Sequence record: PQ436005.1
Length of the DNA: 44,896 bases
From: Escherichia phage vB_Eco_K-02
Reading direction: 5' to 3' (one strand)
The position numbers were made by a program, and so were the translations under genes. Each line of letters opens with the position of its first letter. Position 1 is the first letter of the stretch. The notes under the pieces were generated by a model, which saw only the letters and a list, made by a program, of their open reading frames with translations, had not been told where the DNA came from and made no database searches. Shown piece after piece: positions 39,425 to 39,569 of this stretch.

Positions 39425-39569
39425 CAATAGAGTATGGCCCTTCCGAACGCGTCAGCGTAACTACACTCAGGACTTACGTCCCGCTCCGTTACCTGCCCGC
39501 GCCGCGGTCGCTTGTTCATACTTCACAAGCTCAGGTGGAGCTTATCATATTTTTAGTGAAAAGTCAACT
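39425..39569. repeat. conserved ~145-bp intergenic element, copy 2
   Basis: Aligns to 6822..6966; hairpin ggac-ttac-gtcc replaces gtgcc-taat-ggcac at the equivalent position. Confidence 0.6.

Follow-up and report, generated by a model that had tools for sequence, protein, structure and literature searches.

The leader regions that most resemble the one described here come from lambdoid phages. In phage lambda, the promoter PR', an untranslated leader of ~200 nucleotides (nt) (6S RNA), and the terminator-like hairpin tR' stand immediately before the lysis and head genes, and control is exerted through the QBE DNA site and the Q protein. The put RNAs of phage HK022 are cis-acting, protein-independent antiterminators whose effect on RNA polymerase is blocked by mutations in the beta' zinc-binding domain. 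HK022 carries two promoter-proximal copies of put, each ~70 nt long and composed of two stem-loops with conserved bulges, and putL begins at +2/+3 (PMC9378689). Here we describe a locus of similar layout in Escherichia phage vB_Eco_K-02 (PQ436005.1). The window, which is the whole stretch of 44,896 nt that was analyzed, is a complete, circularly permuted Kagunavirus genome (Guernseyvirinae), and the element in question lies at 39425-39569, upstream of an Rz-like spanin gene. On the evidence of sequence comparison, this element is a folded leader RNA with its own promoter, which heads the leftward spanin, head, and tail transcript and has not been described before.

A conserved cassette precedes the spanin and head genes

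An earlier note on this DNA, made from the sequence alone, had reported a second copy of a conserved element 110 base pairs (bp) upstream of the Rz-like gene. The boundaries of the element proved exact, and its left edge was found 111 bp upstream of the Rz start. The other copy lies at 6822-6966 in the same orientation; it is called copy 1 here, and the element at 39425-39569 is copy 2. The region 39300-39700 is 99.5% identical to Escherichia phage vB_EcoS-phiEc4 (phiEc4), whose record is the reverse complement of the window.

A covariance model, R1, was built on the minus strand from relatives gathered by exact-pattern scans of viral contigs, by one scan of metagenome contigs, and from a phage collection, with six divergent copy-1 variants fetched singly. 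R1 has exactly two matches in the window, at 39417-39544 (minus strand; 156 bits, E = 5e-38) and at 6814-6942 (minus strand; 112 bits, E = 1e-26). Read on the minus strand, copy 2 is not a loose repeat but a cassette composed of a promoter, stem-loop 1 (SL1), stem-loop 2 (SL2), a tail, a spacer, and a GC hairpin. The earlier note had placed the element and the hairpin in the leader of the leftward structural transcript, and our analysis supports that placement. The cassette and the gene behind it contain the following features.

39539-39567, minus strand: leader promoter, with the -35 hexamer TTGACT at 39567-39562, a 17-bp spacer, TG at 39547-39546, and the -10 hexamer TAAGCT at 39544-39539.
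39532, minus strand: predicted transcription start, the seventh base after the -10 hexamer, placed by standard sigma70 geometry only.
39510-39530, minus strand: SL1, the 5'-proximal hairpin GCUUG(U)-loop-(A)CAAGC of 5 to 6 bp, from folds and the alignment.
39443-39507, minus strand: SL2, an irregular hairpin of 65 nt, from covariation and folds.
39469-39482, minus strand: hypervariable apical hairpin of SL2, GGGAC-GUAA-GUCCU; in four of its five pairs, both sides have changed.
39425-39442, minus strand: conserved single-stranded tail, AAGGGCC...UCUAUUG.
39359-39424, minus strand: A/U-rich leader spacer, found with copy 2 only and shared in part by Kagunavirus and Jerseyvirus.
39332-39358, minus strand: leader hairpin GCCCUGC-UUUAAA-GCAGGGC (39358-39339) followed by the U-rich tail UUUACUU (39338-39332).
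38928-39314, minus strand: Rz-like spanin gene, which opens the unit Rz/Rz1, scaffold, major capsid, connector, and tail.

The right end of the element is a promoter

The right end of the element is a promoter and not part of the RNA. Its string, TTGACTTTT-N11-TGNTAAGCT, occurs in the window as two exact copies with zero mismatches, versus 0.10 expected. The hexamers, the TG at -15/-14, and the 17-bp spacing are fixed among relatives, and the spacer sequence is variable. By its hexamers, spacing, TG, and hexamer-centered conservation, 39539-39567 is a predicted sigma70 promoter of the extended -10 type. A generic promoter scan missed it because TAAGCT agrees with the consensus at only 3 of 6 positions. 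The authors of the fBC-Eco01 genome annotated the same bases as a predicted host promoter (PMC9825357). With transcription predicted to start at ~39532, SL1 is placed two bases from the 5' end of the RNA. The first, second, and sixth bases of the -10 hexamer (T, A, and T) are common to all three forms of the leader, namely, TAAGCT in the Kagunavirus-type (K) form, TACGCT in Jerseyvirus, and TAACCT in Cornellvirus, and the TG and the 17-bp spacing are also kept in the latter two. No other promoter was recognizable in front of the Rz/scaffold/capsid/connector/tail unit.

Two sequence motifs lie upstream of the leader promoter.

39605-39619, minus strand: direct repeat TATTCC-AGT-TATTCC, an exact match; candidate transcription-factor site.
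39574-39593, minus strand: 19-nt motif ATGTTGGAATAAACTATTC with the inverted repeat GGAATA-N3-TATTC, ending 6 nt before the -35 hexamer; candidate activator site.

TATTCC-N3-TATTCC and GGAATA-N3-TATTC are found at a fixed distance upstream of the promoter in all three forms (checked in SETP7 and SenTO17). These motifs suggest that an activator acting at the promoter may set the timing of transcription. The 19-nt motif ATGTTGGAATAAnnTATTC occurs twice in the window, at 39574-39593 (minus strand) and again at 38791-38810 (minus strand), in the interval that separates Rz1 from the scaffold gene; this second copy has TTGACA and a CCGGG-TGG-CCCGG hairpin after it. The repeated motif may bind a late regulator, or it may mark an internal promoter. 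A perfect 16-bp palindrome, AACTATTCGAATAGTT, at 39566-39581 overlaps the leader -35 hexamer, with its center at ~-41.5 from the predicted start; only copy 2 of the Kagunavirus form has it.

The leftward transcript folds into a covarying RNA

Hand inspection of relatives revealed hairpins whose two arms change together. A structural alignment of 38 distinct sequences on R1 was compared with controls in which pairing partners were slid by 1 to 3 columns or shuffled 500 times. Standard pairs filled 94.7% of SL2 cells, versus 32 to 42% for the slid controls; double-sided changes were present in 66 pair cells, and none of the 500 shuffles reached the covariation score. SL1 was paired in 100% of cells over 37 distinct sequences, its sixth pair being U:A or U.G. 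One basal pair of SL2 appears in three Watson-Crick forms (C:G, U:A, and A:U) depending on the sequence class, and a switch between U:A and C:G was also seen inside one class (L089 versus L253). Minimum-free-energy folds calculated class by class returned the same architecture.

From its base, the 5' arm of SL2 reads CCG, a bulged C, GGCGCG, GG, CAG, and GUAAC, and the 3' arm returns as GUUAC, G, CUG, A, CGCGUU, and CGG. Between the stem and the apical hairpin lies a purine-rich, asymmetric internal loop, GGAGC opposite UGAGUGUA. The apical stems of relatives include GGAC/GUCC, GUGCC/GGCAC, GUGC/GCAC, GGGC/GCCC, and CACGU/ACGUG. The conserved tail is GGAAGGGCC...CUAUUG, and its GGAAGG and CUAUUG blocks are kept in both copies and in the Jerseyvirus form. 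In the basal helix of SL2, a tandem G.U/G.U step (39502-39501 with 39447-39446) is near-invariant; it is replaced, in a correlated manner, by G:C plus U.U in three variants (L019:3131-3258, L014:4328-4454, and L089:571-696). This step may be a metal- or protein-binding site and not plain helix. Two further interactions were considered. Pairing of the SL1 loop (AGUAUG) with CAUACU of the tail in a pseudoknot was rejected, as the tail varies without compensation. Noncanonical pairs across the internal loop (C:G, G.U/G:C, A.G, R:U, and G.A) fit the K form and the Jerseyvirus-type (J) form and are ambiguous in class D; they are not claimed here.

The paired cells are strongly asymmetric between strands. 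G.U pairs occupy 118 cells on the minus strand, where the plus strand would have A.C, versus 9 cells for the reverse, and therefore the RNA is the leftward, minus-strand transcript. The core of the element also folds 5 to 12 kcal/mol more stably as the minus strand in seven of seven sequence classes. For the whole copy-2 leader, the fold reaches -76.1 kcal/mol (z = -3.3) on the minus strand versus -55.4 kcal/mol on the plus strand, a difference of 21 kcal/mol. A plus-strand RNA had been considered as well, since the hairpin AAGCTC-N5-GAGCTT with a T-run at 39527-39551 (plus strand) is terminator-like. It was ruled out by the 118 A.C mismatches, the less stable fold, and the lack of a convincing upstream promoter. 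The plus-strand hairpin at 39527-39551 overlies the minus-strand promoter from its -10 hexamer to +8.

The G.U asymmetry and the covariation fit an RNA made from the adjacent promoter, and they argue against a DNA-level element, be it a replication origin or primer promoter, a packaging site, or a protein-binding array, whose hairpins would be incidental or would form in single-stranded DNA. Copy 1 does adjoin the helicase-primase operon, a structured RNA transcribed from a promoter could serve to prime or activate an origin, and an inverted repeat extends from the -10 hexamer to +8. However, the universal copy is located in the head-gene region and not in the replication module, and the helix sequences change freely, unlike protein-binding DNA. 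We regard a DNA-level element as very improbable.

The same alignment bears on the coding potential of the locus. A 36-amino-acid open reading frame (ORF) at 39409-39519 (minus strand) is present in the window and is annotated as a hypothetical protein in fBC-Eco01, Bas75, SETP7, and others. Its AUG sits in the SL1 loop and is lacking in two classes, copy-1 class A and class F. Indels of 1 nt interrupt the ORF inside near-identical copies (L016 and L005), class D has an in-frame stop after 19 codons on direct reading, and Jerseyvirus records annotate ORFs with another start and frame over the same place. Start, frame, and length are not kept across homologues, and the substitutions over the ORF compensate RNA pairs. 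A small protein gene at this position is scarcely credible.

A GC hairpin lies between the leader RNA and Rz

The hairpin gccctgc-tttaaa-gcagggc, which the earlier note had located at 39339-39358 and followed by TTTACTT on the minus strand, was confirmed. The gap to the Rz start codon is 24 nt from the hairpin (39339) and 17 nt from the end of the U-rich tail (39332). A terminator scan assigned it 8 pairs, 6 of them G-C, and in the Kagunavirus form the hairpin has the features of an intrinsic terminator. Relatives show a compensatory change from GCCCTGC/GCAGGGC to GCCCCGC/GCGGGGC, and the loop varies freely (UUUAAA, UUUAAG, UUUAUG, UUAC, UUCG, and GUAA). The fBC-Eco01 authors independently predicted the same hairpin as a terminator with ARNold (PMC9825357). 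Jerseyvirus retains the hairpin, here too with compensatory changes, and its U-tract has degenerated to UUAGCGUAU; in Cornellvirus the hairpin has no U-tract. Since the Jerseyvirus hairpin persists with a degenerate U-tract, termination cannot be the only conserved role of the hairpin.

These findings partly support the proposal that the hairpin is a small-RNA terminator or an attenuator or processing site. The part that stands is that the hairpin is real, conserved, and of intrinsic-terminator form in Kagunavirus-type genomes, as judged by the scan, ARNold, and the compensatory changes. To this it must be added that the main feature of the locus is the covarying RNA element with its own promoter and that the Jerseyvirus hairpin has a degenerate U-tract.

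An attenuator that senses a ligand or protein, in which occupancy of a binding domain formed by SL1, SL2, and the tail would decide termination at the hairpin much as in a riboswitch, could explain why conserved unpaired nucleotides are held in a covarying scaffold upstream of a terminator-shaped hairpin. The base of SL2 can also form a local hairpin in some variants (CCGCG...CGCGG, and CCGUG...CACGG in L014). The long-range SL2 helix nevertheless covaries much better than this local alternative. Moreover, the core is parted from the hairpin by a spacer of ~65 nt that differs between copies, no alternative pairing linking the two was found, and Rfam returned no riboswitch match. Such an attenuator appears improbable. 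We rejected an antiterminator helix in which GGCAGG of SL2 would pair with the 5' arm of the leader hairpin, because it would comprise only ~5 bp and would be impossible for copy 1. A leader peptide, AUG-UUU-AAA-UGA, was likewise rejected, as it has no Shine-Dalgarno sequence and its form is not conserved. No match to boxA (CGCUCUUUA-like) of an N-type nut site was found in the copy-2 leader, and matches across the window were at chance level; the freely varying loop of the leader hairpin is also unlike the conserved loop of a boxB hairpin.

Retention of the hairpin without a U-tract could also reflect a role in mRNA stability or processing. The 5' hairpin of ompA protects its mRNA from 5'-end-dependent decay, and T7 and the lambda N leader contain conserved RNase III sites. 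By analogy, SL1 would guard the 5' end, and SL2 or the hairpin would be a processing or barrier site for RNase III or RNase E. In all three forms a hairpin lies 0 to 2 nt from the predicted 5' end; SL2, with a lower stem of ~17 bp, an internal loop, and an upper stem, has the outline of a T7 RNase III site; the GC hairpin is kept 12 to 25 nt before the Rz ribosome-binding site even without a U-tract; and the Shine-Dalgarno-like GGAAGGG is conserved. However, near-invariant bulges, internal loop, and tail over ~450 genomes are not needed for a stability hairpin, and the bulges break up the regular duplex of ~20 bp that RNase III prefers. Moreover, a copy 1 transcript that stops at the hairpin would leave no mRNA in need of protection. 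We consider a stabilizing or processing module unlikely.

Copy 1 heads the lysis and packaging unit

Copy 1 repeats the layout of copy 2 in front of a unit that runs from small genes through holin and endolysin to terminase and portal. Its features, and the promoter that follows it, are listed below.

6937-6965, minus strand: copy 1 promoter TTGACT-N17-TGCTAAGCT, an exact match to the promoter string.
6822-6930, minus strand: copy 1 RNA core, with SL1 at 6910-6929, SL2 at 6840-6907, and the tail at 6822-6839, from the R1 match of 112 bits and the fold.
6716-6736, minus strand: copy 1 GC hairpin GGGGUGGGC-UAAA-GCCCACCC, with an extended outer stem and without a proper U-tract after it.
6612-6657, minus strand: separate promoter of the AATAG-N4-CTATT type, downstream of copy 1, for the leftward small-gene operon.

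The GC hairpin of copy 1 differs from that of copy 2 and lies at a similar distance from the core. Other copy-1 classes carry GGUGCC-UUCG-GGCACC at this place, and class A has no adjacent U-tract. Copy 1 is optional, being present in 42 of the 180 phage records that contain the K element. The same SL2 variant (GGUGC...GCAUU, with the apical stem GUGC/GCAC) was found at L056:2208-2336 and L080:1598-1726, one phage having it in the copy-2 context and the other in the copy-1 context. This sharing indicates recombination between the copy 1 and copy 2 loci. The protein encoded next to copy 1 is HTH_17 and not of the Phage_AlpA family.

The common layout of promoter, core, spacer, and GC hairpin, with similar lengths in both copies, would also be expected of a small RNA ~200 nt long that is discrete and abundant and acts in trans. 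This RNA would run from ~39532 to 39339-39332 in copy 2 and from ~6930 to ~6712 in copy 1, with the late genes expressed by leak-through. The short PR' transcript of lambdoid phages sets the pattern, and in Stx phages it becomes the small RNA StxS. With an independent promoter after it, copy 1 resembles a self-contained gene, and copy number differs among close relatives. Hairpins at the 5' and 3' ends would stabilize the RNA, and the hypervariable apical hairpin and the conserved single-stranded GGAAGGG...CUAUUG could be specificity and seed regions. The universal copy, however, always stands directly before Rz with no promoter between them, and defined 3' ends are doubtful where the U-tract is degenerate (Jerseyvirus) or absent (copy 1 class A and Cornellvirus). 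No target was predictable for such an RNA, and we hold a trans-acting function to be doubtful.

The leader is conserved across the subfamily in diverged forms

The K element was found in 180 phage records by blastn. A diverged J form is present at the same position in Jerseyvirus SETP7 and AG11, where it scored 43.7 and 39.8 bits and was detected only by the covariance model; it occurs in 269 records. A tblastn search of the phage collection returned ~461 records with a capsid protein at least 80% identical, and the K and J forms together account for ~449 of them, which is nearly the whole subfamily. The J promoter is TAGACT-N17(TG)-TACGCT. In place of the K SL1, the J form has a different hairpin, ACGCU-UUC-AGCGU, and the middle helices of its SL2 are replaced by UCGCG/CGCGA, with the basal helices, tail, and overall fold kept. 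Between K and J, helices have thus been swapped wholesale and the architecture retained. Cornellvirus SenTO17 has a third, far more divergent leader, whose R1 score of 6.9 bits is not significant. SenTO17 keeps the promoter layout TGGATT-N17(TG)-TAACCT, a starting hairpin, the CGGAAGGGUC box, and a GC hairpin before Rz, and the Cornellvirus tail retains GGAAGGGUC.

Three pattern scans of viral contigs and one metagenome scan found no homologue outside the subfamily. True matches in these scans were confined to Guernseyvirinae-type contigs of ~41 to 45 kb, and the rest were chance; of the extra loci from the viral contigs, one set had no R1 score and the other lacked the remaining motifs of the family. 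A scan of genome contigs gave at least 120 chance matches in GC-rich genomes. Phages with 40% capsid identity (Aurca01 and Axy14) had no match to the element, and among the matches listed in a protein search with the capsid there were only relatives of at least 87% identity. In Rfam 15, no family reached its gathering threshold over the element, and permissive scans of both copies (E ≤ 10) gave matches at chance level outside the core. The conclusion that this is an undescribed family of structured leader RNAs with its own promoter is strongly supported: promoter features, strand, fold, conservation, position, and hairpin can all be read from the aligned genomes.

Guernseyvirinae (Kagunavirus, Jerseyvirus, and Cornellvirus) are among the most often isolated phages of E. 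coli and Salmonella and have widely been proposed for therapy and food safety. A likely late promoter and a strongly covarying leader RNA are now identified in ~450 of their sequenced genomes. Should the RNA prove to be a stable small RNA or a stability module, it would still be a new RNA family, and the overlying "hypothetical protein" annotation would have to be replaced.

Other promoters and terminators in the window

The motif AATAG-N4-CTATT has 11 matches in the window with at most one mismatch, 8 of them exact, versus 1.2 expected. It falls in the spacer or -10 region of eight sigma70-like promoters (5503, 6627, 10364, 13301, 17062, 30415, 39650, and 41810), which serve replication genes, small-gene operons, and opposite-strand cassettes. 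The same motif was reported with PHIRE for fBC-Eco01 as a "phage-specific promoter," tgAATAGTa-ccTATTat-T; the phages that carry it encode no RNA polymerase. From its distribution, the motif looks like an operator common to all nonstructural units. Near Rz, the only match is a one-mismatch site at 39559-39572, over the leader -35 hexamer and upstream of the hairpin.

The Rz-to-tail unit ends at a bidirectional terminator (32893-32874) and contains one further terminator-like hairpin.

36946-36967, minus strand: strong terminator-like hairpin (9 pairs, then TTCATTTACT) that immediately follows the major capsid gene within the Rz-to-tail unit.

Near-identical bidirectional terminators, AAAAGGCCCC-N4-GGGGCCTTAGTTTTA and variants, occur at 14022-14052, 20292-20328, 32868-32903, 40205-40225, and 42132-42165, and this family flanks cassettes transcribed against the structural genes. 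The sole Rfam match in the window is int-alpA RNA (RF02996) at 30316-30380 (minus strand; 36.6 bits), directly after the extended -10 promoter TGCTAGAAT (~30389-30397, minus strand) in the leader of the tail operon. It constitutes a second terminator-shaped structured leader before a late block. A perfect 77-bp tandem duplication of two identical units lies at 4893-5046, in the leftward small-gene region. The regulators seen were limited to an HTH_17 (Xis/MerR-like) protein and a DicA-like protein. Published time-course transcriptome sequencing of a Kagunavirus reports genes only and nothing on this region (PMC12645636).

The leader RNA may promote read-through of late terminators

The leader RNA probably controls how far late transcription goes. 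Our tentative interpretation, which we put forward as possible and not as established, is that it acts in cis to bring about read-through (antitermination) in the manner of put or of PR'-tR'. The late promoter, the structured leader RNA, and the leader hairpin would form one cassette, with the element as its promoter-proximal part. The first ~110 nt of the transcript fold into SL1, SL2, and the tail, and ~65 nt further on the GC hairpin with its U-rich tail follows. To our knowledge, Guernseyvirinae have no RNA polymerase gene. Host RNA polymerase would be made resistant to termination by the nascent leader that it is transcribing, which would act in cis either unaided or together with a phage factor. 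Transcripts would then pass the leader hairpin, the post-capsid terminator at 36967-36946, and possibly the bidirectional terminator at 32893-32874. Copy 1 would confer the same property on transcription into the small-gene/holin/endolysin/terminase/portal unit.

Several observations point to read-through in cis. Strand asymmetry, covariation, and the stability of the minus-strand fold argue for a functional leftward RNA. The promoter is invariant and unique to the two copies, its layout is kept in the diverged forms, and each of the two copies in the genome heads a long same-strand unit. A hairpin stands between the promoter and the first gene, no other promoter was recognized before Rz, and the late units have terminator-like hairpins both within them and at their ends. 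The position is conserved in ~449 of ~461 records, through helix replacement and core exchange.

Other considerations weigh against read-through. The start site, termination, and read-through are all deduced from sequence. No antiterminator gene is found among the annotations of phiEc4 and Bas75; specifically, none of the Q family is annotated in either, in genomes whose small proteins were mostly not searched. R1 has no match in HK022, so homology to put is lacking. Because a separate promoter follows the copy 1 hairpin, read-through is not needed there, and the poor Jerseyvirus U-tract means that the terminator to be overcome may be weak and that the hairpin may serve otherwise. Finally, a constitutive cis-acting antiterminator directly before a terminator would not be obviously useful.

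A broader version of the proposal is more speculative. In it, the leader would represent a new class of promoter-proximal antiterminator RNA, unrelated to put in sequence and fold, that drives late (head, tail, and lysis) transcription across a subfamily of virulent siphophages. It would work with host polymerase alone or with an unrecognized small phage protein, and the lysis and packaging operon would come under the same control through a mobile second copy. We rate this version as rather unlikely in its full extent.

Comparison with known systems

The T7-type RNase III hairpins resemble SL2 in being irregular, sequence-related, repeated structures of untranslated RNA in which an internal loop separates a lower from an upper stem. 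They differ in that the element described here occurs in one or two copies, is fused to a promoter, and forms the 5' end of a transcript, and its lower stem is broken by three bulges. The int-alpA RNA of the same genome (30316-30380, minus strand) also directly follows an extended -10 promoter and is a terminator-shaped leader of the tail operon, yet its sequence and fold are unrelated and it is 65 nt long.

The layout of lambda PR'-tR' is reproduced at this locus, with a promoter at 39567-39539, a hairpin and U-tail at 39358-39332, and Rz at 39314. As in lambda, no other promoter is recognizable for the late block. In contrast, the lambda leader has no conserved fold beyond its terminator, whereas here conservation and covariation reside in the RNA itself; the annotations include no Q homologue, and the U-tract is weak outside Kagunavirus.

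The element is not a put homologue, because R1 finds nothing in the complete HK022 genome at E ≤ 10. It also differs from put in its dimensions, with hairpins of 21 nt and 65 nt compared with the ~70 nt of put, which adopts a V shape with a triplex, and in its setting, since it belongs to a virulent phage and precedes late genes whereas put precedes early genes. The sequence and structure of put are thus not shared. Its layout is: like putL and putR, the element occurs twice in the genome, both times a short way behind a sigma70 promoter that opens a long, terminator-containing operon, and each copy comprises two stem-loops with conserved bulges, the structured RNA here beginning at ~+2. If this RNA does modify elongation, it would join a single known kind of RNA-only or RNA-centered processive antiterminator in phages and would offer a compact part for synthetic biology.

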